From: a virus
Length of the DNA stretch: 64,000 nucleotides
IMG/VR virus record: IMGVR_UViG_3300032286_001304
Location: 33,941-97,940 of that record
Reading direction: 5' to 3' (one strand)
Below are positions 26,632 to 51,915 of this stretch, piece by piece (positions within the stretch are counted from its first letter, which is position 1; each line of letters starts with the position of its first letter). Both the position numbers and the translations under genes were made by a program. The notes under the pieces were generated by a model, which worked only from the letters and a program-made list of their open reading frames with translations, made no database searches and had not been told where the DNA came from.

Positions 26632-27693
26632 TCAAGGATAAAGTTCAAAAACATTGGGTCGAACTGGAGTTTGACCCGATTCAAGCTCGTAGTCATATTG
26701 TGCCATAATTTCCATGTGTTTTTTGAAAGGCATCCGCTGTGGATTCCATCCAATCAGATTTTGTGCCTTTTTGCTACTACCAACCAGTTTCAAAACTTCA
26801 TTTGGGCGCTTGAGAGAATTGTCAATTTGAATATATTTTTTCCAGTCCAAATTAAAATACCCAAATGAATAATCAAGAAATTGCTCCCCATGATAACAAA
26901 CATCTGAACTTAAAACAACATCCTCTGGTTTGTCTAGTTGCAGTAGATTAAACATGCCTTCCACGCAAAAATCCGCATAAGTTTCATCTCGCCAATGGTC
27001 TATGTTACCGCAAATAATTTTATCCGTTTTGCCTAATGCAATTTTAGCCGCATAACTAGAGCACTTCCGGGCGAAAAACGATGGATGTCTATATATATTA
27101 CTATGATTGAAAGTGAATGCTGTTACGCAAAACATACCATAAGTTTGCCGGAAATACTTAACCCAATTATAGGCAAGATTTTTTGCAATCGAGTATGGGG
27201 AGCGAAATTCTAGGGGGGAATCCTCATTGAAGGGGCAGTTTCGGGGATCGCCGCCAAACATTTCACTAGTAGACGCTTGAAAAAATTTAACCTTTGGACA
27301 AAATTCGTAGCAAGAATCTAAGAGATAAAACACCGATACACCCGTGGCGAAAAGAGTGTAAGTTTCGTTTTTGAAGGAATCTCCTACATGACTTTGGGCC
27401 GCAAGGGAATATAGTTCGTCAGGTTCGCCGTAATTTTTGACAATTTCCCTAATCCCATTACGAACAGAAGAAGCGTCCGTAATATCCATGAATTGGAAGG
27501 ATAGTTTTGATTGGGGGTATTTTGATAAATCTACAGAAAATAGGGAGGAAATTTCCTCTATAATTTGCTTAGTGTTCCTGCGATATGTAAGAATCACATG
27601 ATAATTTTTTGATAGCAGTAGGTGGGTGATGGTTTTTGAATCCATTCCGGTCCCCGTTACCACTGCTAACTTAGATTTATTTTGAATATTCAT
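26632..27693 (-). CDS. gmd: GDP-mannose 4,6-dehydratase
   Basis: PDELY.LAAQSHV..SF, QASTSEMFG, RSPYSIAK, FNH, GN.D..RD, RP.EV..L.G. Confidence 0.9.
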   Translation of the reverse strand: MNIQNKSKLAVVTGTGMDSKTITHLLLSKNYHVILTYRRNTKQIIEEISSLFSVDLSKYPQSKLSFQFMDITDASSVRNGIREIVKNYGEPDELYSLAAQSHVGDSFKNETYTLFATGVSVFYLLDSCYEFCPKVKFFQASTSEMFGGDPRNCPFNEDSPLEFRSPYSIAKNLAYNWVKYFRQTYGMFCVTAFTFNHSNIYRHPSFFARKCSSYAAKIALGKTDKIICGNIDHWRDETYADFCVEGMFNLLQLDKPEDVVLSSDVCYHGEQFLDYSFGYFNLDWKKYIQIDNSLKRPNEVLKLVGSSKKAQNLIGWNPQRMPFKKHMEIMAQYDYELESGQTPVRPNVFELYP

Positions 27694-27695
27694 GA

Positions 27696-28961
27696 TTAAT
27701 TTTTAAATTCTTTCTTTTTTAATGTCCACCCATTATACTCTTTTATCTGGTCCCTTATCAAGAGAAAAAGTTTTTTCTTCGGAATTAGCCCAATCATAAA
27801 TTTCCATAGCTCGCTGGGGCTTTCGGCAGAAATCTCTTCGTTAGTATTTATATTTAAAAGAGATATATAACTATATTGTTTTCTTGGATGACTTTTTAAA
27901 ACGCTTATTAAATCAAATCTTTTATGATTTTTTAGTCGCCCATTAACGATTCTTCTAATTGATGGATCGCCCATCTCAAGTATAAATTGAGATAAATTTG
28001 TTATAGTTATTTCTATTTTATTTTTCTTGTCATATAAAACATATACTCCACATGGTTTTGTTTTATTCTTTAAACAAACAATATCCTCGTCCGTGATACT
28101 CGCGAGTCTCCACCCTTTTCGCTCTACAGCCTTACCCCGTATCAAAAAAGTTACATCTTCGCGCAATAATGGAGGATGAAGGCGAGCAAACTCCGTTGAA
28201 CTTCCTCCATATTTGTAAATTTTGCCATCTGGTCCCTTTAGCTCCATATCTTTTAGCTCTTGGCGCTTAAACCATTTTGAAATATCCATACCTTCTTTGA
28301 TATAATCACCACATGGAGTATTTGTCTTAAATCCATTAATCATTGCAGATAAATAATCTGGATTTAATTTTTTTTCTAAGGCGAATTCAGATATGTTTTT
28401 AAAATAAATAACTTCTTTTGTTTTATAATTAATTAATTTATATTCTTTGTTTGGATTTTTAATTAATTCTAACGGAGTTCCCTTTAGCGCGAAACCCTGA
28501 GATGAAATATTTTGTTTAGAAATAACAACTTTTAGACTTGGGTAAGACAACCCTCTTTCTTTGCAAAAATCTTTTAGATGGAAAATAATATATTCTTTTC
28601 CTTTGTAATCAACAAGATGATGCTCTTGGGATACTGACTCGGATAATTTTCTTTTTGAAATCTCCGAAAACTCAGGAGAATCTCCACCAGTTGTAAAATT
28701 ATAGCCATTGGGAACAAAAGTGTTATGTTTTGCTATATGAAATTTTTCTAATCTTTTCAGTTCTTCTTTTGATTGTACATTTGACTCAAGCAGTTCAACT
28801 TTAAAGTTTTTAGGACCGTATAAATTAACGGCATTTGACAGATATTGATTATGATGCTTTCTATACCAATTTCCATGATACCTTTCTCTTATATTTTTCT
28901 TTATACTCAAACCGATATAAGAATGTCCATTTATTTTGTTGGTAATTTTATAGATAATCAT
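27696..28961 (-). CDS. GIY-YIG homing endonuclease with repeated NUMOD-like C-terminal units
   Basis: MIIYKITNKINGHSYIG, PNGYN.T.GG; repeated F.....L.......GW units; start placed at ATG 28961. Confidence 0.8.
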   Translation of the reverse strand: MIIYKITNKINGHSYIGLSIKKNIRERYHGNWYRKHHNQYLSNAVNLYGPKNFKVELLESNVQSKEELKRLEKFHIAKHNTFVPNGYNFTTGGDSPEFSEISKRKLSESVSQEHHLVDYKGKEYIIFHLKDFCKERGLSYPSLKVVISKQNISSQGFALKGTPLELIKNPNKEYKLINYKTKEVIYFKNISEFALEKKLNPDYLSAMINGFKTNTPCGDYIKEGMDISKWFKRQELKDMELKGPDGKIYKYGGSSTEFARLHPPLLREDVTFLIRGKAVERKGWRLASITDEDIVCLKNKTKPCGVYVLYDKKNKIEITITNLSQFILEMGDPSIRRIVNGRLKNHKRFDLISVLKSHPRKQYSYISLLNINTNEEISAESPSELWKFMIGLIPKKKLFLLIRDQIKEYNGWTLKKKEFKN

Positions 28962-29035
28962 TGTTCGCCCTTTATCAAAATTACACCTGAGACGAACACT
29001 TTTATACACAAAAAGAATCCATATATACACTTAAA

Positions 29036-29290
29036 TCAAGTTAATTCCTGTTTATCCACCCATTCTTTTAAGCACTTTAATCCACAGAAATCCCATGCGT
29101 TAGGGCGTTGTAATTCCGCAAACCAAGTTCCCCTCGGAGTTCTTGTTAAATGATACCAGCCACCTTTAAAACTGCCGCCAATTAAGGTTTCGGCATGATC
29201 GCAAGTTTCTTTACCGCAATTATCACAGTTTAAAGTTGTTATTTGAACGAAAGTTTCGACTGTCTTTTTTAAGGTATTAACGTGTTTCAT
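29036..29290 (-). CDS. Small zinc-finger-like protein
   Basis: CDNCG ... DFCGLKC. Confidence 0.6.
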   Translation of the reverse strand: MKHVNTLKKTVETFVQITTLNCDNCGKETCDHAETLIGGSFKGGWYHLTRTPRGTWFAELQRPNAWDFCGLKCLKEWVDKQELT

Positions 29291-30216
29291 ACTTTTAATT
29301 CAAATGTTCCATTTCCAATAAATTTCGTTAAGCTATCATATCCCGAATAAGAGACGGCGCTTGATATACCTCCCCATAAATCATTCACCAACTCCTCAAG
29401 GGAAAAAATTTCTTGCTCTACGGATAAAACTTTGCCCTCGGAATGTCTTTTAACTTCCCCCTTCTGTTTTATTTGTTGATACTTGCTGGCCCCACCCCAA
29501 AACTTAAATTCTCCATCAATTATATTTTGAGCCTCTTTTGCATTCTTCCAATAGCCTCCTAACATCACGTAATCGGCCCCAGCCCCAAAAGCCTTGGCCG
29601 CATCTCCGGGAGAACGAACGCCGCCATCAGCACAAATTATCTGATCATCGGCATATCGCCCCTCTCGACACTCAATAATCTCGGTTATTTGCCCACGGTT
29701 TACGCCAGTCATTTTAGAGGTATCGCACCCGCTGCCAGAAGCTATGCCTATGCGGCAAAATACATCCCGATAAAGATTTAATCCTTTGGAAGTATGAATG
29801 TTACCTACCATTACGATATAACCTTTATGTAAAAGTTCATTTGTGAATCGAACCACATTATCTAAGTATCCGTTCGCAACATCAACTAAAACATGATTGT
29901 GTTGAAGTTTTTTAACTCTATCCCAGTCATTTAACCCAACGGAAACCCAGCATCTATCAACACGACTATATCGAGAGCGAATTTCATTAAGAATATCCAA
30001 TTGTGATTCTACCGTATCAAATCTATGAAGACAAATAGTTAATCCAAGTCGATAAGCTTCTAATGCAAATGTTTTGCCAATAATGGCTGACATTGGAGAA
30101 ATTATAAAACGATTTAGCTCTCGCGGAACATCTTCGCGAGATTTTACTGTATATTGCGGTTGAGCAATAAGGTTTACGTCGTCATAATAAATTGATTTTG
30201 AATTTAATATTTTCAT
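29287..30216 (-). CDS. GMP reductase / IMPDH-family protein
   Basis: YDDV, SPM, VDVANGY, GIASGSGC.T, ADGG...GD.AKAFGAGADYVMLG, SEGK; start placed at ATG 30216. Confidence 0.85.
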   Translation of the reverse strand: MKILNSKSIYYDDVNLIAQPQYTVKSREDVPRELNRFIISPMSAIIGKTFALEAYRLGLTICLHRFDTVESQLDILNEIRSRYSRVDRCWVSVGLNDWDRVKKLQHNHVLVDVANGYLDNVVRFTNELLHKGYIVMVGNIHTSKGLNLYRDVFCRIGIASGSGCDTSKMTGVNRGQITEIIECREGRYADDQIICADGGVRSPGDAAKAFGAGADYVMLGGYWKNAKEAQNIIDGEFKFWGGASKYQQIKQKGEVKRHSEGKVLSVEQEIFSLEELVNDLWGGISSAVSYSGYDSLTKFIGNGTFELKV

Positions 30217-30249
30217 GTATAAATAGCCTGATTTTCCGTGCAATAGAGA

Positions 30250-30564
30250 TTAAGTATGAATAAAAAATATATTAATATAGATAGAATTGTTAATTTGGTC
30301 ACTGACTTGGTTCCTGACTTGGAACTGGACTTTATCCCAGACTTGTTTCCAGACTTGCTCACTGACTTGGCTATGGACTTTATCCCAGACTTGGTCCCTG
30401 ACTTGGATCCAGACTTGGTCCACGACTTTATCCCAGACTTGGTCACGGACTTGATTCCTGACTTGGTCATGGACTTGGATCCTGACTTGGTCCCTGATTT
30501 GGTTCCAGACTTGGTCACTGACTTGGTCACTGACTTGGAGCTCGACTTTATTTTGTAAGTTCAT
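30250..30564 (-). CDS. xxQV-repeat mini-protein 6 (104 aa)
   Basis: MNLQNKVELQVSDQV...; 21 tetrapeptide units; ATG at 30564. Confidence 0.65.
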   Translation of the reverse strand: MNLQNKVELQVSDQVSDQVWNQIRDQVRIQVHDQVRNQVRDQVWDKVVDQVWIQVRDQVWDKVHSQVSEQVWKQVWDKVQFQVRNQVSDQINNSIYINIFFIHT

Positions 30565-30757
30565 TTTGAATTGGAATCCCGACTTGGTCATAGACTTGGT
30601 CCCTGACTTGGTTATAGACTTGGTTCCTGACTTGGACCCTGACTTGGTTATAGACTTGGTTCCAGACTTGGTTATCGACTTGGTTCCAAACTTGGTTCCA
30701 GACTTGGATCTTGACTTGGTCCCTGACGTGTTTCCTGACTTTATTTTCTAAGTTCAT
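30548..30757 (-). CDS. xxQV-repeat mini-protein 5 (69 aa)
   Basis: MNLENKVRKHVRDQV...IQNELTK; ATG at 30757. Confidence 0.65.
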   Translation of the reverse strand: MNLENKVRKHVRDQVKIQVWNQVWNQVDNQVWNQVYNQVRVQVRNQVYNQVRDQVYDQVGIPIQNELTK

Positions 30758-30848
30758 TGCGGATTTGGTTCCTGACTTGGTCCCTGACTTGCTCATTGAC
30801 TTGGAACATGACTTGGCCTTGGTCGCGTACTTTATTTTTCAAGTTCAT
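30741..30848 (-). CDS. xxQV-repeat mini-protein 4 (35 aa)
   Basis: Hand translation MNLKNKVRDQGQVMFQVNEQVRDQVRNQIRNELRK; not in ORF track. Confidence 0.6.
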   Translation of the reverse strand: MNLKNKVRDQGQVMFQVNEQVRDQVRNQIRNELRK

Positions 30849-31053
30849 TGTGGATTTTATCCCAGACTTGGTTCCTGACTTGGTCCCAAACTTGGTTCCT
30901 GACTTGGCTCAAGACTTGGTCATAGACTTGTTTCCGGACTTGGTCCCTGACTTGGTCATGGACTTGGTCATGGACTTGGTCATGGACTTGGTCATGGACT
31001 TGGTCATGGACTTGGTCATGGACTTGGAGCTCGACTTTATTTCGTAAGTTCAT
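30832..31053 (-). CDS. xxQV-repeat mini-protein 3 (73 aa)
   Basis: MNLRNKVELQV(HDQV)x6...IHNELEK; ATG at 31053. Confidence 0.65.
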   Translation of the reverse strand: MNLRNKVELQVHDQVHDQVHDQVHDQVHDQVHDQVRDQVRKQVYDQVLSQVRNQVWDQVRNQVWDKIHNELEK

Positions 31054-31186
31054 TGCGGATAGGATTCCTGACTTGGTTATAGACTTGGTTCCTGACTTGG
31101 TTCCAGACTTGGTTATCGACTTGGTTCCAGACTTGGATACAGACTTGGTCATAGACTTGGTTCAAGACTTTATTTCGTAAGTTCAT
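31037..31186 (-). CDS. xxQV-repeat mini-protein 2 (49 aa)
   Basis: MNLRNKVLNQVYDQV...PIRNELTK; ATG at 31186. Confidence 0.65.
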   Translation of the reverse strand: MNLRNKVLNQVYDQVCIQVWNQVDNQVWNQVRNQVYNQVRNPIRNELTK

Positions 31187-31361
31187 TGCGGATAGGATTC
31201 CTGATTTGGCTATGGACTTGTTTCCAGACTTGGTTCCTGACTTGGCTCCAGACTTGGCTCCAGACTTGGTTACTGACTTGGCTATGGACTTGTTTCCAGA
31301 CTTGGATACTGACTTGGTCACTGACTTGGAGCTCGACTTTATTTTGAAAAATGTTCTTCAT
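31170..31361 (-). CDS. xxQV-repeat mini-protein 1 (63 aa)
   Basis: MKNIFQNKVELQVSDQV...PIRNELTK. Confidence 0.65.
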   Translation of the reverse strand: MKNIFQNKVELQVSDQVSIQVWKQVHSQVSNQVWSQVWSQVRNQVWKQVHSQIRNPIRNELTK

Positions 31362-31363
31362 AT

Positions 31364-31390
31364 AAAAAGGGAGACCGATAATGGTCTCCC
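31364..31390 (-). terminator. Rho-independent terminator after the DUF6745-like gene
   Basis: Minus strand GGGAGACC-ATTATC-GGTCTCCC-TTTTT (perfect 8-bp stem). Confidence 0.8.
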
Positions 31391-31396
31391 CTTGAG

Positions 31397-32293
31397 TTAA
31401 GCAATGGCTACAATTTTCATTTCCTTACCACCAAATCGCTCCTTAATTGCATCCTTCAGAGTTCGGCAAGTGGGAGATACAGCCTCAACGTGCCAGATAC
31501 CAGTGGTCTGATTCTTCATCTTGAGATAAGGCTGATATTCGAGACCTTCAAAGAGCACCGCCATATCCCAGAGTTCATATTCCGACTTCCACCACCAAGG
31601 CTGTTCTTCTTGGTCATAGTTCTCGTAGGAATCAATCTTCTTGCCGAGGTCGAGCATTCGTTCTACGCCATATTTGCGAACGAACTCAGCCTTTACGTCC
31701 GCATTGGTTTCCTTCTTGAAGAAGTCCATTGAAAGTTCCTCAGCAGGAGTCATCACCAGATATTCTGGAACAGTGACTCCGTTCAGCGAATAGAATCCCC
31801 AGCCTTCATATTCGAGAGCCATACCATTCTCGCAATGAAGACGACCACGAGCATCAGTGATAATCTTTTTTGGTTTCTTGGTCACAACACAAATATCGTC
31901 AAGGGGATAAATCAATCCCAGTTTTGCCGTATCAGACCAAGCCTTAAACTTTTCCTGAAGCTCAGGATTCACTTTTACAATTCCCTCAGTGAAGAAGAAA
32001 TCATAGAACGCAAAGATATGAGCCGAGAATGAACCATCCTGATAAGGAAATACAAACGATTCATCAGAATTAGTATGTTTCTGTATGAAAGCCCAAGCCT
32101 CTTTTGGATTATCCTTAACCACGACCGGAGTAGGATTGACCTTCAGAATAAGTTTCTGATAGTTGTGAATGATCTCAGTGGTCTCGGCAAGACCCAACGA
32201 TACCGTATCCTTACCAATTGCAACCCACTTGGCGGTATAATCCGCCATGCGAGCTTCCTGTTCGGGAGTCAGTTTTTCAAGCTTGTTTGACAT
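31397..32293 (-). CDS. DUF6745-like protein
   Basis: N-terminal KLTPEQEA.M..Y..KW..IG, AFYDFF, and GRLHCENGMALEYEGWGFY.LNGV.VP, E.NA.V, YELW, M...TTG..H...V.P motifs (family recognised from memory). Confidence 0.7.
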   Translation of the reverse strand: MSNKLEKLTPEQEARMADYTAKWVAIGKDTVSLGLAETTEIIHNYQKLILKVNPTPVVVKDNPKEAWAFIQKHTNSDESFVFPYQDGSFSAHIFAFYDFFFTEGIVKVNPELQEKFKAWSDTAKLGLIYPLDDICVVTKKPKKIITDARGRLHCENGMALEYEGWGFYSLNGVTVPEYLVMTPAEELSMDFFKKETNADVKAEFVRKYGVERMLDLGKKIDSYENYDQEEQPWWWKSEYELWDMAVLFEGLEYQPYLKMKNQTTGIWHVEAVSPTCRTLKDAIKERFGGKEMKIVAIA

Positions 32294-32311
32294 AATAAAA
32301 GAAGTTAAAGG

Positions 32312-32644
32312 TTAGTCACGAACTTTATTCATACGAGCAGTAAAGGGGTCATACTCCTGCTGGAATCCAAATTCATAAGTGCCAGGAGGAAGAACGATGG
32401 CATCATGCCGTTCGGTCAGGACACAGCGAATTTGAGTCTCAACAGTAGACTCCATGTATTTGGTTTCGCCGTCCTGATAGAAATCCACACCATCAAGAAC
32501 ATCAACAACGTGATGATTGCCGGTAGTTTCCGAATCAGCAACGATGACATGAGTGCCTACATTGGTGAGTTTCTTGGCAGACTTTGGAAGAGCAGAGAGA
32601 AACACGGTGCATTCGCCGTGGAGAATTACTTCATTAGTTTTCAT
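32312..32644 (-). CDS. Small His-rich beta protein, habitual partner of DUF6745 genes
   Basis: HGE, ADSETTGNHH, H..I.LPPG.Y....Q.EYDP......V.D. Confidence 0.65.
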   Translation of the reverse strand: MKTNEVILHGECTVFLSALPKSAKKLTNVGTHVIVADSETTGNHHVVDVLDGVDFYQDGETKYMESTVETQIRCVLTERHDAIVLPPGTYEFGFQQEYDPFTARMNKVRD

Positions 32645-32692
32645 TTTTTTTATTTTACTGAATCTTTAATAAGCTGATTATTGCTAATCATA

Positions 32693-32983
32693 TTAGTAAT
32701 CAAATACAAATCCATCTGGAAAGTCAAGCTGATCTTTTAATTTTTCCTTAAAAAGTGCATCATCTGGAAATCCATCATAATCATCGCCAATTTTTTCAGA
32801 GTAAACATAGGAAGATGGGATATATTCATCCTTTTGAACAAACCCCCATTTTAAATTTCCCCATCTGTAACGCAAATAAATCTCATTACCGCATTCCGTC
32901 AAAGCAGACAATTGATATGGAGCCGCCCCGCCTGATTCTGTAATTTCTTTAATTTTTACCTTGTCCATTAGACTAATGAACAT
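32693..32983 (-). CDS. Hypothetical protein
   Basis: 96 aa ORF with AP.Q......G..IYLRYRWG.L motif. Confidence 0.55.
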   Translation of the reverse strand: MFISLMDKVKIKEITESGGAAPYQLSALTECGNEIYLRYRWGNLKWGFVQKDEYIPSSYVYSEKIGDDYDGFPDDALFKEKLKDQLDFPDGFVFDY

Positions 32984-33829: not shown

Positions 33830-34639
33830 TCAAGAAGAAATTTTAATAATAGATGGAATTTTTTGTGAAGTCTTTATATAGTATTCTTTATTAAATTCTA
33901 AGCAATTTTCTGTTTCACTCCATTTAAAACTACATCCGTTTTCACCCCATCTTTTAGTCTGATATATTATCTTGCGCTTACTATTTTCGTTAGATAACCA
34001 TGAATAATGTTTAATATTCACTAATTTAGTAGGAATTGTCTTTGATGGAAGTTCTTTATCTGCGATAGTTATTTCTTTAAAAGAACTTGAATTATTTATG
34101 ATTCCTTTGTAAGAAAAATCATTATCATAGATGCATTCATTAAGTTTATATTCGTTAGTATAAATTTTCCAAATTCTTGGTGGACAAAATTTATCCTCAA
34201 GTATAGTTTTTTTATCAAAGACGTAATTCGTCAATGGAATGCGGAACCAACTACAAAAACGCTCTAATTCAATATATTTTAATATATTACTTATGGATTT
34301 TTCATCATAAATTTCATCTGAATCAACAAGCCACAGATGTGTTATCCCTTGATTTATCAACCATTGAGCAGCAGTATTTCGCGCTTCTTTTTCTGAGACA
34401 TATTCTGGCTGAGTAATTAGATTGTCGATTAATCTACGATTATAATATTCTAATAGAATATCTTGTGTTTTATCTTTAAATTTTTCTTCTTTATACTCTA
34501 AGAATGGAACTGATACGGCGCAAATAAGAAATTCATTTCCATTTAATTTATTGCCTTGTGCATTAATCCAAGGGTAAAGTGAATCATGGATATGTTCCTC
34601 TGTATTGTAGCCGCAGTATATAATGCCGATTTTGCTCAT
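33830..34639 (-). CDS. GT-A fold glycosyltransferase (GT2-like)
   Basis: E..ARN, WLVDSDE (DxD), PPRIW, IKHYSW. Confidence 0.7.
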
Positions 34640-35010
34640 TTTTTGCCCTCAAATATGTTACCAACAACTTCCATTGTTTCGTGAATAAATACAGAATCAT
34701 TTCTCGCAAACCCAAATGAACGATCAAATGAAAACATTGCCATCTCTTCATCCCAAAACACTTCTCCGATAGTTTCTTCTATATCTTCAGCTGGATTCAT
34801 CCATTTGAATTTAATAATATCGCCTTCATATATTTCATTTCCATTTTTATCTTTTAGACCAGTATATTGCTGAAGGACATATTCTTCGCCACCCGAACCA
34901 TTCTGTAAATTATAAACAGATCCTTTTAAATCTATTGTGATATGATAATTGTAATCATATCTAGCAGCAAGTCTATCCCACGCTCTAAATTTTATTTTTC
35001 TATAATTCAT
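34636..35010 (-). CDS. YopX family protein
   Basis: [32 protein letters not shown]. Confidence 0.9.
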
Positions 35011-35027
35011 AAGATGAATAAATCAAG

Positions 35028-35777
35028 TTATTTAAAAAAAGTCAAATCATTTATTGGATTTATGTTAGAAAAATTTATGTATTTTGCGCGACATTGTTCA
35101 TTTTCCCAGTATTCATCTGTAAAATGATATTTCCAAGATGGATAATATAAATCATCTGAATTAGGATGATAGACTAAAATTTTTCCACCAACTGCTAACA
35201 TCAAATGAGGTGGACCAGATTCACTTCCAATATATTTTCCAATTAATTTATAACAAGCTGCCATATTTCTTATATCTAAATCTAGAATTTTTATGACACC
35301 ATCTATATTGTCAGTATTATGAGATAATCCAAAATTTATAGGAGTATAACCAAAATCAATTAAATGTTTTACAAGTAACTTTATTTGTTCATAATTAAAA
35401 CATCTAAGAGATGAAGCTAGATCGCCTCCTTTATTAGAAGTAGTAAAATTTACAGCGATTGGATTTTGTATTCCTTTTACAATATTTTGTGCAAACTCTA
35501 ATTCTTCATCTTTAATAATAATGTATGGAATTGGTGATTTATTACAATTAAAATATTTTAAATGAGCTGCTGACCGATGAATTCTATCATTTGTTTCTGG
35601 ACAATGATCGTAATCTAAATTACTAAATTCAATATCTCCTAGTCCATCAAAAATTTTTGCGACATTTCTGCATACTTTATCATCAGGCAAAATAATTTTT
35701 TTAGCTATTCCATGTTTAAAAAATGGAGTTAACCAAAGATTATCTCCTAAATTACCAATTTTAGAATTTATTGTCAT
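35028..35777 (-). CDS. GT9 (heptosyltransferase)-like glycosyltransferase
   Basis: LGDNLWLTP and YIGSESGPPHLMLAVG. Confidence 0.7.
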   Translation of the reverse strand: MTINSKIGNLGDNLWLTPFFKHGIAKKIILPDDKVCRNVAKIFDGLGDIEFSNLDYDHCPETNDRIHRSAAHLKYFNCNKSPIPYIIIKDEELEFAQNIVKGIQNPIAVNFTTSNKGGDLASSLRCFNYEQIKLLVKHLIDFGYTPINFGLSHNTDNIDGVIKILDLDIRNMAACYKLIGKYIGSESGPPHLMLAVGGKILVYHPNSDDLYYPSWKYHFTDEYWENEQCRAKYINFSNINPINDLTFFK

Positions 35778-35798
35778 AATGATGTTATTAGTATATTA

Positions 35799-36692
35799 TT
35801 ATGATAATTTTTCTTTAATTTTGTCAATCACTAAATTAATATCTATATTATCATTGCCTCCATGAGAATAGAAAGAATAATTATTTGGATTATTAGTAGA
35901 TAAAGCAGTTGGATTATTATCGTTACCCCAATGAATTGGCGTAAGGGAGATTTGATTTAGTCTGTAAGCACCGCAAACAAGCGACATTCCTGAGTCAGAA
36001 CCAATTATTAAATCACATTCATTTGCAATTTGAATTTGTTCAAAAAATGATTTTTCATTTATTCTTATGTAATTAGTTTTCAGTTTATTCTTAAAAGAAT
36101 CACTTAAATTCCAATTAGAAAACCAAGATTCATCTTGTTCACCGCCACTTTGGATGACGCAATAATCTAAGTTAATTAGTATTTCTATAAGATTTTCTAA
36201 ATACTTTTTAGTTACCCATCTTTTAGATTCTTTACCAAAATTCGGCATTCCAGTAAAAAAAATAGTTTTTCTATCACCAAATAGTTTTTTAACTGGACTC
36301 CACCATTTTACTAATTTTGGTATCTTTTCCTCTTCGGTTAGTAAAGTCCATTGGTCTTCTGAAAAACCTGCCATCAGAAATGATTCAAGATAAATATTTC
36401 TTTGAGATGGATAAATAGAATCAGGATGTTGTGGATTTAAATCTAATCTATGATTACAAGAATTAAATTTATTAAAATCATTTTTAGATTCTAATCCTTC
36501 ATATCCATCTGTAATAAATATTGAATCTAAATCTGGATGATTTAATAAAAGTGGAGCGAATGAAGACGATTTTTTACCAATTGCCCATGTTATATGAGAA
36601 TTAAGATCATATTTTTTTACTAATCTAGCAGTAGGAAGTGCAGCTAGATTGTCTCCAATCATTGAAGCTCGACCCATGAACCATTTATTCAT
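35799..36692 (-). CDS. GT9 (heptosyltransferase)-like glycosyltransferase
   Basis: IGDNLAALP, LLNHPDLD, KRW, IIGSDSGM. Confidence 0.75.
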   Translation of the reverse strand: MNKWFMGRASMIGDNLAALPTARLVKKYDLNSHITWAIGKKSSSFAPLLLNHPDLDSIFITDGYEGLESKNDFNKFNSCNHRLDLNPQHPDSIYPSQRNIYLESFLMAGFSEDQWTLLTEEEKIPKLVKWWSPVKKLFGDRKTIFFTGMPNFGKESKRWVTKKYLENLIEILINLDYCVIQSGGEQDESWFSNWNLSDSFKNKLKTNYIRINEKSFFEQIQIANECDLIIGSDSGMSLVCGAYRLNQISLTPIHWGNDNNPTALSTNNPNNYSFYSHGGNDNIDINLVIDKIKEKLS

Positions 36693-36700
36693 AATAGATT

Positions 36701-37402
36701 TTAACTAAAAAATTTCTCGGAACCTTGAATATTTGGTTCTCCAAGATGAAGAACATTTTTATTAATCCTTCTTAATTTACCAGTATATTCAAAATCTCCA
36801 TTAATACAATCACCCCATAAATTTCTCCAAATCCAATCATGTTCTCCGATTTCATGATTTTCAGAATACCTATTACCAGATTTAACTATAGAACTTTTTG
36901 AATTCCAGATTTGTAAATATCCAAATCCTATTCCTGGATAAGATACAAATTCAGACTCATCTTTTTCCCCACTAAGAACTAATTCAAAATCTTTTTTATT
37001 AGGAATAATTACTCTTCTTGAAGAATAAAAATTTTCAATATCTATAAGTTCTTTTTCTAAGATATTTCTATAATTTTCAGTAAGAGCAATATCACAATCA
37101 ATATGACAAATCCAATCTTGGAATTTAAAATGATCGATACAACTATTTATTGCAGCACCTTTATTAAAATTCTTTCCATTTTTAAAAAAAGAATCAGTTT
37201 CAAAAAAAGTTATATTATTTTCAATACAAAAATCTTTAATATCATAATCTGTATTTTTTGTAATTACAATAAAGTTATTAAAAATTTTTTTTGAGAATAG
37301 ATAAGTTATATTTAACATTCTCAAGGCTGATTTACCAGAACATGTAGTTATAGCATCAATTTTCATATAAAATTTTTTTAAAGGCTGAATAAAAAGTTTC
37401 AA
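36701..37402 (-). CDS. GT-A fold glycosyltransferase
   Basis: FNKGAAIN, HIDCDI, GYLQIW, VLHLG; true start probably second Met. Confidence 0.7.
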   Translation of the reverse strand: MKLFIQPLKKFYMKIDAITTCSGKSALRMLNITYLFSKKIFNNFIVITKNTDYDIKDFCIENNITFFETDSFFKNGKNFNKGAAINSCIDHFKFQDWICHIDCDIALTENYRNILEKELIDIENFYSSRRVIIPNKKDFELVLSGEKDESEFVSYPGIGFGYLQIWNSKSSIVKSGNRYSENHEIGEHDWIWRNLWGDCINGDFEYTGKLRRINKNVLHLGEPNIQGSEKFFS

Positions 37403-38345
37403 TCATTTTTTTATGAGAAAATCTTTTAGCACTTTCCCATACTTTTGTTCTATCTAATTGCAAACATTTATTATAAATATCTAAAATATTATCATTATTA
37501 TTGTTTAAATAATATCCATTTTCTCCTTCGATTAAAAGATATTCAAAACATCCTTTATTATATGCAATAATTGGAGTTCCCATAGCTAAAGATTCTACTA
37601 CGCTTAAATTAAAAGCGGTATTCCATGTATGCGGATATATTGAAAGAGAAGATTTTTTTAAATATTCATTTTTTTCTTTTTCACTTATTAAGCCCAAATA
37701 GAAAGTTGTTTTTTTATCTATATAATCTAAAAGAGGATAATTATCAAATATAGGTCCAGCAAAAATACCTTTTATATTATTTTCTAAACAAAATTTTGCA
37801 GTAAAAATAGAATTTTGATGATTATCATGTCTAGAGCATACGAAAATAGATCCATCTCTTTCTGAATCTATGAATTCATCTGGAACATATTTACCGATAA
37901 CTACTGGAAATCCTTTACCGAATTTAGCTTTTTCATTTGGCCTATATAAAAGAGTGTATGGAGTATAAGGATGTTGAGCACCACAATCTCCCATAAGTGA
38001 CCAATGAACAAGTTTTGATTTTAATTTTCCTATATTAATAAATAAGCAATCATGATGATATAAGAAAATATCAAATTCTTCAGCATTTTTTATAATTTCA
38101 CTTATTCTAATACCATTTCTTAGTCTTATTAAGTCATCTAAAGAAAGAGTTATGCACGCTTTTTTATTTTCATGTTCTTCTAAATTTTCAAAATTAGATG
38201 AACTTCCAAATATATAAAATTCATCTTTTCCATTATTTAAATATTCTTTTGCATATCTTGCAAAACATGCAGCACCTCCATACTTTTTTGCATTTATAGA
38301 ATAATCTTCTGTTTGAATATTTAAATCTAAATAACCTATTTTCAT
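37356..38345 (-). CDS. GT4 (GT-B) glycosyltransferase
   Basis: YGGA, FNLSVVESLAMGTPII, EGENGY. Confidence 0.8.
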   Translation of the reverse strand: MKIGYLDLNIQTEDYSINAKKYGGAACFARYAKEYLNNGKDEFYIFGSSSNFENLEEHENKKACITLSLDDLIRLRNGIRISEIIKNAEEFDIFLYHHDCLFINIGKLKSKLVHWSLMGDCGAQHPYTPYTLLYRPNEKAKFGKGFPVVIGKYVPDEFIDSERDGSIFVCSRHDNHQNSIFTAKFCLENNIKGIFAGPIFDNYPLLDYIDKKTTFYLGLISEKEKNEYLKKSSLSIYPHTWNTAFNLSVVESLAMGTPIIAYNKGCFEYLLIEGENGYYLNNNNDNILDIYNKCLQLDRTKVWESAKRFSHKKMIETFYSAFKKILYEN

Positions 38346-38358
38346 TAAAAATTATTTA

Positions 38359-39597
38359 TTACAATTTTGATAATTCTAAGGCTAATTGTTTAGCTATTTC
38401 CGCTTTAATTCCAGTATGTAATCCAATATAGATTGAATTATAATGTAAGTAATCAGCATTTGGGTAATCTTTAGGATTTCCATATTCTTTAAATGCAGTA
38501 TGACGGAGAAGATTTGAACCTACAAGTCCACGATAACCAACTCCAGCAGCATTTAAATATCCTTTAACTTTTTGAATAAGTTCCTTGTCTGGATATTTTG
38601 GATCACGAATAATTGGTAGAGAAAGAAGCATATGACCACTTTCACTATTAATATGTTGATTTAAATATTTATATACTTTTTTACAGACTTTTGAATCATA
38701 TGAATTAAGGTTAGAATAAAATACTTTACTGATAGAGCGACGATTTTCTTCTGACCATTTTAGAGAACGATCAAAATCTAATGAATGCATGTATGCAATC
38801 AAATTAGTGCTTCGGTAATTAGAACCGACTAAATTAAAATCAAAACTTGGATCTACATCTGGGTTCTTATATTCTTCCGGCATCCCGCGAGTCATGCCAT
38901 GATTACGCGCCATTCTATACCAATTAGCTTCTTCTAAGGTTTGACAGAAAATTAATCCACCTTCCTGCATACCACTTGTAAAATGGCTTGCATAAACAGA
39001 AGTTGATGAAGTTGTAATATTACAAAAATGTCTATTGTAACTATCAAAAGGATGGGTTTTATTAAAAGCTTCCCATGAAAAAGACGATTCACAATTATCT
39101 AATAAAAGTTTTACACCACGTTTTTGACATTCTTTTGCTAGGGTTTCTAAATTGCAAGATTGACCTAGAAGAGTAGTATAAAAAACGGTATCAATATCCT
39201 TATCTTTATCAAGTTTTTCTAAGATTTGTTTTACCGATGGATTCAAATTTACTAAATCTACATCAACAAATACAGGCTTAAAAGAAAAATTAATCCAAAC
39301 ACTGACACTTGAAATCCAATTAACTACATTAAATAAAACTTTATTTTTACCACAATTCCATAAACCTTGTTTTTTAAGTTCTTCTTTTCTATGCAAAGCA
39401 ATTAGTTCATTTGCTTCACTTCCAGATCCAACCATAACAACATATGGAGATCCAGTATATTTAGACCATTTATTTTCATATTTCTCTATCTCAGGGCCAA
39501 GAGTCCATTTATCATTAGTTAAAATAAATTTACTGATTTTGAGTTTATCAAGCACTGTCATGCTTGAATATCCAAGTTGCCAATTATATTTTTTCAT
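38359..39597 (-). CDS. DegT/DnrJ-family PLP enzyme, ColD/E1-type 3-dehydratase
   Basis: SGSEAN, PVFVD, DNCES, YASHF...EGG (His at the usual Lys site), RNHG, G.NYR; start placed at ATG 39597. Confidence 0.75.
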   Translation of the reverse strand: MKKYNWQLGYSSMTVLDKLKISKFILTNDKWTLGPEIEKYENKWSKYTGSPYVVMVGSGSEANELIALHRKEELKKQGLWNCGKNKVLFNVVNWISSVSVWINFSFKPVFVDVDLVNLNPSVKQILEKLDKDKDIDTVFYTTLLGQSCNLETLAKECQKRGVKLLLDNCESSFSWEAFNKTHPFDSYNRHFCNITTSSTSVYASHFTSGMQEGGLIFCQTLEEANWYRMARNHGMTRGMPEEYKNPDVDPSFDFNLVGSNYRSTNLIAYMHSLDFDRSLKWSEENRRSISKVFYSNLNSYDSKVCKKVYKYLNQHINSESGHMLLSLPIIRDPKYPDKELIQKVKGYLNAAGVGYRGLVGSNLLRHTAFKEYGNPKDYPNADYLHYNSIYIGLHTGIKAEIAKQLALELSKL

Positions 39598-39952
39598 TAT
39601 ATCCAAATTTTTTTTCGCTATATTCATTTTTTGGGAAGAATTTATCTTGAAGAGCTTTTTTTAATTGAAATCTTTTATAGTTAAGATTATCTACAATAGA
39701 TGCTGGTAAATTAGAGTTTACCTTTATTTCATCTACTAAGTCAAATATTTTTTCATTACAATCAAGAAGTTCTTTGTATTCAGTAGAGTCAATTATACTT
39801 GATAAAATATTCTCGTTTATTTGATTTGAAATTTCAGATTTTATTTGTAAAAAATTATTAAATGCAGTTACGTTTTTCGTTTTATTATATTTGACTTCAG
39901 ATATCGAAAGAAGATCGAAACAAAAAGCTTCATCTAGTTGTAATTTAATCAT
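39584..39952 (-). CDS. Hypothetical protein (phage family found with glycan genes)
   Basis: DEA..FD.LSI.EVK ... N..RF..K. Confidence 0.55.
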   Translation of the reverse strand: MIKLQLDEAFCFDLLSISEVKYNKTKNVTAFNNFLQIKSEISNQINENILSSIIDSTEYKELLDCNEKIFDLVDEIKVNSNLPASIVDNLNYKRFQLKKALQDKFFPKNEYSEKKFGYNEKI

Positions 39953-50004: not shown

Positions 50005-51915
50005 ATGTCTCAAAAGAAAAGGGTTTTAATTCATACAAATGCACCTTGGCTTAAAACAGGTTTAGCTGAAAATGGAAAAATTCTAGCCAAATATTTATTC
50101 AAAACAAATAAGTATGAATTATTTTATTACTGCTCTCAGACATATGAAAATGATCCACAGCTTCAAACGACACCTTGGAAGTCATTTGGTTGCATTCCCG
50201 CAGACCCTCATATTCAAAGTCAGTTAAATCAAGATCCATCAAAAGCGCGAGATACTGCTTATGGAGCTTATTTTATAGATAAAATTATCAAGGAAAATAA
50301 AATTGATGTCTATATTGGTTCAGATGATATATGGTCATTTAATGGATATGTAGATAAGCCTTGGTGGAATAAAATAAATTCATGTTTACATATAACTGTA
50401 GATTCACTTCCAATTTTAGAGTCCGCAATCGATCAAGCTTCAAAAACAAAGAATTACTTTACTTGGACAAAATTTCCACTAGAAGAATTTCGTCAAAAAA
50501 ATCTTCATAATGTTAAAAATATTTATGGAGTCATGGATACAGAAATATATTCTCCAATAACTAAAGAGAACAAACAGCATTTAAGAAATCTTTTTAACAT
50601 AGACCAAAATACAATTATCTTTGGATATGTTTTTAGAAATCAACTAAGAAAAAGAACTCTACAACTTTTAAAAGCATTTTCTGAGTTTAAGAAAAAGAAT
50701 CCTGATGTAAAAGCTAAAATTCATTTACATACAAGTTTCTCTGAAAATGGACATGGATGGAATATCCCTAAGATGATTAGATATTTCAATATTAAAAATG
50801 AAGATATTCTATGCACTTATGTATGTAAAAAATGCGGAAAATGGATAGTAGCTCCATATCAGGGAGAAGATATAAATTGTCCAATTTGCAAAGCGGAAAA
50901 ATCAATGATTACTCCAACTATTGCCACTGGAGTTCCGCATGAAGAAATGAAATTTCTCTATGGAATATGGGATGCTGGAGTTAGTCCTATGAATTCCGGT
51001 GGTCTAGAATACCATAATTGCAATACTTTACTATGCGGACTTCCTCTTGCATCAACAAATTACTCATCCGGTGAAGATTTTTGTGAACAATCTTTTGTAT
51101 TTCCTATTAATTGGGAAATGGATTTTGAACCAGGAACAAATTTCATAAAAGCGGCCCCATGTATTAAATCAATAGTTGGATTCATGGAAAAGATTTCAAG
51201 AATGACAGAGTCAGAAAGAAAATCAATCGGTGAAAAGGGCAGAACTTGGGCCAAAGCTACCTTCTCAATAGATACAGTTGGTAAACAATGGGAGGAAGTA
51301 ATCGACTCATCTGCTTTTGTTGATTGGGATAATATAAATTTAGAACAACCCAAATCTAATGAAAATTATGTTCTTCCAAATAATTATAAAGAAATTCCTG
51401 ATAATGATTTCGTAAAACTTCTTTATAATAATATCTTAAATAGAGATCCAGATGAAAATGGATTTAAGAACTGGATGACTCAACTTAATAATAAAGCACC
51501 TAGAGAAAAGCTTTATGAATATTTTATAGACGTTGCAAGAAAAGAAAATATAGAAAAGAAAACTATTTCAGCATTTGATTTGATAGATAAGAATAGAAGT
51601 AATAAAAGGCTAATATTTGTAACTCCTCAAAGTGCGGGTGATATATTTATTGTATCTTCAATATTAAAAGCTGTAAAAGAACAGTATTTTAATTACGATA
51701 TATATTTCATGTGCGACCAAAAGTTCCATGAGATACTAGAAGGAAATCCATATATTCATAAAATCTTGCCTTGGATTCCACAATTTGATAATGAAATGTT
51801 TGCTATTGGAGCAGGTCAAACTGAACAACTTTTTCATGCATATTTAAATCCAACAGTTGCAACTCAAGCAAAATTAGCATATCTAGGAAATACTAACCCA
51901 AAATTTAATAAATAA
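50005..51915 (+). CDS. Multidomain glycosyltransferase: GT4 with Zn-ribbon insert + DUF4214-like + GT9 N-terminal lobe
   Basis: TGLA, RNQ.RK, CKKC..CPIC, SGGLE.....LLCGLP; FV..LY.NIL.RDPD..G...W; SAGDIF.VSS....K..Y...IY. Confidence 0.75.
   Translation: MSQKKRVLIHTNAPWLKTGLAENGKILAKYLFKTNKYELFYYCSQTYENDPQLQTTPWKSFGCIPADPHIQSQLNQDPSKARDTAYGAYFIDKIIKENKIDVYIGSDDIWSFNGYVDKPWWNKINSCLHITVDSLPILESAIDQASKTKNYFTWTKFPLEEFRQKNLHNVKNIYGVMDTEIYSPITKENKQHLRNLFNIDQNTIIFGYVFRNQLRKRTLQLLKAFSEFKKKNPDVKAKIHLHTSFSENGHGWNIPKMIRYFNIKNEDILCTYVCKKCGKWIVAPYQGEDINCPICKAEKSMITPTIATGVPHEEMKFLYGIWDAGVSPMNSGGLEYHNCNTLLCGLPLASTNYSSGEDFCEQSFVFPINWEMDFEPGTNFIKAAPCIKSIVGFMEKISRMTESERKSIGEKGRTWAKATFSIDTVGKQWEEVIDSSAFVDWDNINLEQPKSNENYVLPNNYKEIPDNDFVKLLYNNILNRDPDENGFKNWMTQLNNKAPREKLYEYFIDVARKENIEKKTISAFDLIDKNRSNKRLIFVTPQSAGDIFIVSSILKAVKEQYFNYDIYFMCDQKFHEILEGNPYIHKILPWIPQFDNEMFAIGAGQTEQLFHAYLNPTVATQAKLAYLGNTNPKFNK

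Follow-up and report, generated by a model that had tools for sequence, protein, structure and literature searches.

A DUF6745 module of a freshwater phage with its tetrapeptide repeats in mini-genes beside the core gene

Where is the repeat segment of a DUF6745 module when the DUF6745 protein itself has none? The question is raised by a locus in an uncultured freshwater phage (IMG/VR virus record IMGVR_UViG_3300032286_001304; 97.9 kb, approximately 63% complete), of which positions 33,941 to 97,940 were analyzed; this whole stretch of 64,000 bp is referred to here as the window, and all coordinates are window coordinates. At 30250–32644 a gene for a small protein with a His motif, a DUF6745 gene, a hairpin, and six mini-genes composed of xxQV tetrapeptide units follow one another, all on the minus strand, just as the original prediction had laid out the two genes and the adjoining array of six. 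That prediction, which was made from the sequence alone, proposed that the repeat carried inside other DUF6745 proteins had been moved out into the array to give a split system. Comparison of homologous loci supports the view that the window contains, in split form, a system found fused in other loci, that the two layouts are mutually exclusive, and that they have been interconverted several times.

The core of the module is a protein of 298 residues (31397–32293, minus strand; phrog_31813), which matches PF20530 over residues 124–288 with 42.1 bits (cut-off 27; E 7.7e-11). It is organized as a helical N-domain (residues ~1–75), a 9-residue linker and a C-domain (residues ~85–298), and it is collinear over its full length with its homologues, many of which give 99–100% query coverage, with 35 invariant alignment columns. 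A search of 5.8 billion proteins returned 385 homologues of the core, and a profile search of 1.84 billion representatives returned 8472 DUF6745 clusters (50% identity) at E <= 0.001, of which 4868 reach E <= 1e-10, the matches being almost entirely viral among the hits seen. A tblastn search with the core identified one uncultured record only, and a second query added Mycobacterium phage prophiGD102-1 (MW584211). The AlphaFold2 (AF2) model of the core has a predicted local distance difference test score (pLDDT) of 91.2 and a predicted template modeling score (pTM) of 0.76; a Foldseek search with it gave no match at E <= 0.001, and the best Z of a VIA-wide search was 3.8, confined to one sub-domain. 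The term DUF6745 is absent from the literature that was searched.

An internal tetrapeptide tract is present in 56 of the best 150 family representatives, with QV the commonest flavor, so that what the original prediction had stated of many DUF6745 proteins proves to be true. In full-length tract-bearing members the tract starts at residues 50–80, exactly between the N-domain helix (...NPxxAW...) and an FVxPYxDGSF motif, which is the linker position; examples include P0036, P0062 and P0072 (xxQV, ~9 to 40 units), P0018 (xxEV) and viral locus L003 (xxNL), and the fixed third residue varies by lineage (Q, S, E, N, K, A). In the window protein this position, between AWAFI and FVFPYQDG, is occupied by nine residues (QKHTNSDES) with no repeat, much as had been noted. 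A direct comparison is provided by gp38 of prophiGD102-1, a Pfam DUF6745 member with an internal tract, whose N- and C-domains are homologous to those of the window protein (E 6e-29) and whose ~50 xxQL units are located at the window linker site, whereas the window protein has its short linker there and the repeat is encoded in six downstream genes. Unlike the window core, gp38 has no adjoining His-motif partner. Another DUF6745 relative, at L063:4823–5666, has an xxKL/xxKF tract with several in-frame stops and is an apparent pseudogene; its partner gene also looks disrupted.

We fetched 80 viral loci with DUF6745 relatives and scored them for 12-nt repeats inside and outside the DUF6745 open reading frame (ORF) and for the His-motif gene; counts are given over 73 distinct C-domains, and absence of an array refers to the fetched flanks. 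A tract lies inside the DUF6745 ORF, with no array, at 35 of the 73 loci, and a tract-less ORF is accompanied by a nearby same-strand array of mini-ORFs at 22, the window included. None of the 73 has both an internal tract and an external array, and the tract is thus either inside or beside the gene but never both, which together with at least four changes between internal and external states on a maximum-likelihood tree of the C-domains bears out the proposal of a split system. On this tree the window and L002 (both external) are sister to L017 (internal), and L076 (external) is nested within an otherwise internal clade.

The association can also be read from the side of the arrays. When viral contigs were scanned for five CAAGTC-N6 units in a row, 119 loci were obtained, 34 of which have DUF6745 within the fetched DNA, the rest being either unrelated low-complexity runs or true mini-gene arrays on short fragments. 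In the whole records of 40 arrays, DUF6745 is found elsewhere in nine, including all three with a completeness of 90% or more and one with 79%; DUF6745 is missing from the other 31, which are 2–29% complete. All three complete array-bearing genomes (G002, G017 and G022; 149–197 kb, from loci L092, L133 and L156) have an array directly downstream of a tract-less DUF6745 gene (297–304 residues), as does the 79% complete record, and QV arrays independent of DUF6745 are therefore not seen at this level of completeness. The three complete genomes have further xxQV arrays 5–40 kb away, and in G022, a record bearing direct terminal repeats, arrays are present at both ends. Runs of VQVQ, VKQV or the like in L093, L120, L124, L140 and L160, mostly from giant-virus bins, share the CAAGTC period and have no DUF6745 in the fetched DNA; they are unlike the mini-gene arrays and are probably unrelated.

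The six mini-genes, all ORFs on the minus strand, encode 63 (31170–31361), 49 (31037–31186), 73 (30832–31053), 35 (30741–30848), 69 (30548–30757) and 104 residues (30250–30564), numbered here 1 to 6 in the direction of transcription; mini-gene 4 is the shortest, mini-gene 6 the longest, and mini-gene 3 includes six identical HDQV units. They are underlain by a 12-nt tandem repeat (30302–31329; 84.8 copies by Tandem Repeats Finder). Each begins with MNLxNKV, except for the first (MKNIFQNKV), continues with xxQV units, and ends with ...NELxK (...IRNELTK in mini-gene 1, MNLRNKV...NELTK for the whole of mini-gene 2), except for the last, in which a divergent hydrophobic tail replaces NELTK. Every following ATG is located 17 nt upstream of the preceding stop and in the +1 frame, within a conserved junction, AATGAACTTACGAAATAAAGTC. 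The motif (CAAGTC N6)x3 occurs 38 times in the 97.9-kb record, always in the array, and a reversed control occurs nowhere. Between the core gene and mini-gene 1 there is a G+C-rich hairpin of 11 bp (31366–31393, minus strand), followed by a T-run leading into the ATG of mini-gene 1; its predicted folding energy is −18.8 kcal/mol (z −4.14, with none of 200 shuffles folding as well), and it may be a terminator-like or RNA-stability element, although a consensus terminator scan did not list it.

L002, with a core 76% identical to that of the window, has the same order of partner, core and mini-genes, of which there are four, and its junctions have the same overlap in different DNA, AATGACCTCACAAAATAAAGTC, such that NDLTK-stop overlaps MTSQNKV. 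Arrays in other lineages have their own start/stop architecture, their own conserved termini and their own repeat flavors: L015 has at least 15 genes of the form MNKINxSV...DYFEQK with xxSV units, in which neighbors are in the same frame and a stop is followed by a new ATG; L037 has MNFTKPIK...NELQQSTIK with xxQL units; and L043 has MKPIKEQL...KDEID. The mini-gene junction of the window (RNELTK-stop overlapping MNLRNKVELQV) resembles the left tract boundary, LNELFKNGNQVETQV, of its nearest fused relative (L017/P0036), and this resemblance suggests, by inference only, that the array may have arisen by tandem duplication of the boundary together with the tract.

The grammar of the repeat was derived from per-position counts over the 78 units of the window array, with the long ORFs of the window as the codon reference. 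Bases 7–12 of the unit (CAAGTC, Gln-Val) are almost invariant, even at silent sites, and GTC accounts for 96% of Val codons in the units as against 9% in the long ORFs. At base 6, 78% of units have C, so that the codon is GAC or AAC, which elsewhere make up only 15% of Asp and 11% of Asn codons. Variation is concentrated in bases 1–5, with R, W, H, S or Y predominating at residue 1 and D or N at residue 2, and the number of repeats varies among the six mini-genes. This pattern fits homogenization by slippage or unequal recombination, combined with selection for variety in two residues. There is no RVT_1 (reverse transcriptase) match in the 97.9-kb record, only 63% of the genome being covered by it.

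The partner gene (32312–32644, minus strand) encodes 110 residues and lies directly upstream of the core gene in the window, in L002 and in a few others, the usual position being directly downstream. Its match to phrog_27831 is weak when taken alone (E 1.6e-4), and relatives found by tblastn adjoin DUF6745 in most of the 80 loci. In an alignment of 30 sequences, E39, H45, H80 and the C-terminal D110 are invariant and the motifs GE.TG.HH, ..RH.., EYD and, at the C-terminus, V.D are conserved, the family always ending in Asp. The original prediction had called this a metal-binding partner, and the four invariant residues are compatible with a metal site, an argument from conservation that falls short of proof. 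The predicted fold is all-beta with a C-terminal helix (AF2 pLDDT 89.6); a fold search with it gave no convincing match (best Z 2.9), and the partner profile matched nothing among PDB sequences or in Pfam. An ESM Atlas model of the partner aligns to a 366-residue DUF6745 cluster with a TM score of 0.67, a hint either of fused forms or of a sub-fold common to both; longer, fused relatives of the partner were looked for by a word-based search and none was found, which is weak evidence by the tool's own statement.

How might a core without a tract make use of the repeats encoded beside it? We propose that a three-part module, consisting of the DUF6745 core, the small His-motif partner and a hypervariable tetrapeptide-repeat segment, is widespread in phages, and that the window holds its split form. 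The mini-proteins would be translated successively via coupled termination and re-initiation at the 17-nt overlaps and would act with the core, probably by docking on it, such that six repeat surfaces would be interchangeable on one core. The fixed half of the unit would be kept homogeneous, and the number of units altered, by slippage or unequal recombination. In the most speculative step, which draws on the analogy of gp54 of phage Tweety, the module would serve the phage–host arms race as a tunable binder or counter-defense factor, and this role is the least secure part of the mechanism. We regard the proposal as a whole, that separately translated repeat micro-proteins complete a DUF6745–partner core, are diversified by repeat instability and serve phage–host conflict, as evenly poised between right and wrong. 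Its most far-reaching version, a combinatorial system in which the genome encodes a fast-evolving library of repeat micro-proteins, any one of which can complete the two-protein core in trans, is put forward tentatively and may well claim too much; if it is true, a single virus would assemble one complex in several to dozens of versions, with which it might, for example, bind or neutralize variable host factors. This would be the counterpart, at the level of protein, of cassette-based diversity, and DNA would not have to be rearranged.

The pairing of core and repeat peptide in trans, a central element of the original prediction, receives some encouragement from a complex model of the core with mini-protein 2, which has a median score of 0.55 as against 0.00 for the best of three controls; at least 32% of contacts recur between runs, the pLDDT of the partner chain is 60 or more, and the support is graded weak. 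The mark applied to such models is reached by 58 of 80 solved complexes and by 2 of 110 mismatched pairs, and scores no higher than 0.60 at the mark are obtained by only 7 of the 80 solved complexes and by both of the passing mismatches.

Several observations count against completion of the core in trans, or against the generality of the split. Sixteen of the 73 loci lack both tract and array (a contig end truncates four of them, and others are short-flanked), and the states are partly clade-clustered, so that the independent events number a handful and not 57. In the window, transcription could stop at the hairpin that separates the DUF6745 gene from mini-gene 1, and the array is preceded by no clear promoter or ribosome-binding site. 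The complex model with mini-protein 2 is weak by the tool's own calibration, and if the tract merely spaces the two DUF6745 domains, a role of the kind that has been suggested for gp54, its function could not be taken over by a free peptide. PADLOC, NCBIfam and solved-structure searches gave no functional hint for the proteins of the module. Tweety gp54 (phrog_3416) has no PF20530 match, and hhalign against the DUF6745 alignment gives it a probability of 0.1%; Tweety gp55 shows no detectable homology to the His-motif partner, and a counter-defense role is thus argued by analogy only.

Among the rival explanations the best survivor is one in which DUF6745, perhaps with the partner as a metal cofactor protein, modifies the repeat peptides in the manner of a system for ribosomally synthesized and post-translationally modified peptides (RiPPs), the fused forms being self-substrates and the arrays precursor libraries. 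Borosins offer a likeness, in that they too include fused and split systems, and the dichotomy seen here would fit, as would tandem genes for short, similar peptides beside two conserved proteins, the invariant His, Glu and Asp residues of the partner, and the many invariant polar residues seen in the alignment of the DUF6745 C-domain. However, searches of Pfam, PHROGs, NCBIfam and PADLOC brought up no domain of a known RiPP enzyme, of a protease or of an exporter (novel enzymes being possible), there are no cleavage motifs between the units, the lineage-dependent identity of the fixed third residue is a poor fit to one chemistry, and the setting is a lytic-type phage genome; we consider this explanation unlikely.

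The mini-ORFs could instead be incidental, the array being either a DNA-level element, such as a recombination hot spot or a set of protein-binding repeats, or the decaying remnant of an excised tract. The fixed silent sites of CAAGTC would then be accounted for, and the same may be said of the three frames of the array strand, all of which are open, and of an upstream hairpin that could stop transcription. What speaks for coding is that distant lineages with different junction DNA retain their starts, stops and terminal motifs in the xxQV frame, that the tracts of the fused proteins share the mini-ORF frame (none of the 56 tract-bearing representatives has a KS or PS flavor, which are the products of the other frames), and that arrays persist and expand to at least 15 genes in several clades. 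An incidental origin of the mini-ORFs is accordingly rated as distinctly improbable.

The original prediction had also raised the possibility that the array is a donor pool for the core; its units would then enter the DUF6745 gene by recombination and exchange the insert there. The likeness between the mini-gene junction and the left tract boundary of L017/P0036 points to a common origin by duplication and is in keeping with such a pool, but the core gene retains no repeat or boundary homology at the insertion site, and no locus shows both states. Population data consist of the assembled contigs of four runs, and contigs drop rare variants. Those of the probable source sample break up inside the array, and in the four runs no contig joint reaches 32050–32100, where rare recombinants could be missed; joints are found only inside the array. 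Run X2, from another sample of that study, contains a strain that is 98% identical over DUF6745, and its contigs on the array are only ~83–92% identical, with joints inside 30544–31335. This divergence is a weak hint of array turnover, and only a hint because short contigs on repeats fit several places. Exchange between array and core is thus unsupported, and we give it very little credence.

A single polyprotein, with the six ORFs joined by programmed +1 frameshifting at conserved A-AAA-TAA-A junctions, can be set aside almost entirely, for although every junction in the window and in L002 shifts +1 at the same AAA TAA A motif, there is an ATG with a conserved N-terminal motif at every junction, and no frameshift could join the L015 neighbors, which share a frame and are separated by a stop and a new ATG, such that separate initiation of each mini-gene appears to be the simplest reading.

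The module differs in composition from its surroundings, with 30250–32650 forming a G+C island (43–45%, versus 26–33% in the flanks); the GACCAAGTC repeats account for part of the excess, and the DUF6745 and partner genes are also richer. A DNA search of 30200–32700 against 50,697 phage records gave no match. Directly downstream of the array is a gene of the IMPDH/GMP-reductase family (29287–30243, minus strand), the start of which is nearly abutted by the stop of mini-gene 6 at 30250. Beyond it, a free-standing GIY-YIG homing endonuclease of 444 residues (27696–29030, minus strand), with no match in Pfam, is assigned to the group I intron endonucleases by TIGR01453 (56.3 bits, barely above the cut-off of 56.05); it has a sugar-nucleotide dehydratase-like gene on one side and a small Zn-ribbon ORF on the other. 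The module is flanked (26632–27693 and 33830–39627, minus strand; 50005–51915, plus strand) by sugar-nucleotide, glycosyltransferase, heptosyltransferase-like and aminotransferase genes, a cluster that is unusually AT-rich, at 23–30% G+C, and that suggests phage-encoded glycan modification. Elsewhere the record encodes a lambda-J-like central tail fiber, a DNA polymerase, a ribonucleotide reductase, a DnaB-like helicase and a UvsX-like recombinase, and the phage is therefore a large tailed phage; its genes do not mark it as T4-like.

We found no described precedent in the literature for the detached mini-gene layout, and comparisons with known systems are with fused repeats. Because glycosyltransferase genes are nearby, a link to freshwater glycofibrils with tetrapeptide-repeat cores (bioRxiv 10.1101/2025.09.30.679562) was considered and rejected, as these need dihydroxyproline and Ser/Thr, which the xxQV units do not provide. 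The VR2 repeats in gene bbp36 of Bordetella phage BMP-1, as they are cited in PMC2884959, are short in-frame repeats of variable number in a non-essential gene; going by that description, their unit is 24 bp as against 12 nt in the window, and they have no known link to DUF6745.

The closest studied system is Tweety gp54, which has 40–48 tetrapeptide repeats and in which escape mutants alter the number of repeats to overcome the Phrann gp29/gp30 defense (PMC9262239, PMC2884959). Gene 54 is phage-encoded and non-essential, and its silent sites are fixed beside variable first and second codon positions (PMC2884959). Gp54, together with Che8 gp57 and PMC gp51, shares with the window the 12-nt period and units of two fixed and two variable residues; W, G, S and Y are among the variable residues, both have fixed silent sites, and in gp54 too the repeat number differs between relatives. 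It differs in having its own layout, with a 140-residue N-terminal part and a 45-residue C-terminal part, and no split form of it has been described; the resemblance is one of repeat grammar, perhaps of role, and not of ancestry. The rule that the repeat is either inside or beside the DUF6745 gene gives rise to the testable hypothesis that the repeat segment is a functional unit able to work detached from the core, for which the fused gp38 of the M. abscessus prophage and the split arrays in complete phage genomes of 149–197 kb are tractable entry points. If the mini-proteins do complete the core in trans, they would give viruses a new means of diversifying a single protein complex, and tunable tetrapeptide repeats, of which Tweety gp54 is the one studied case, would be extended to thousands of phages.

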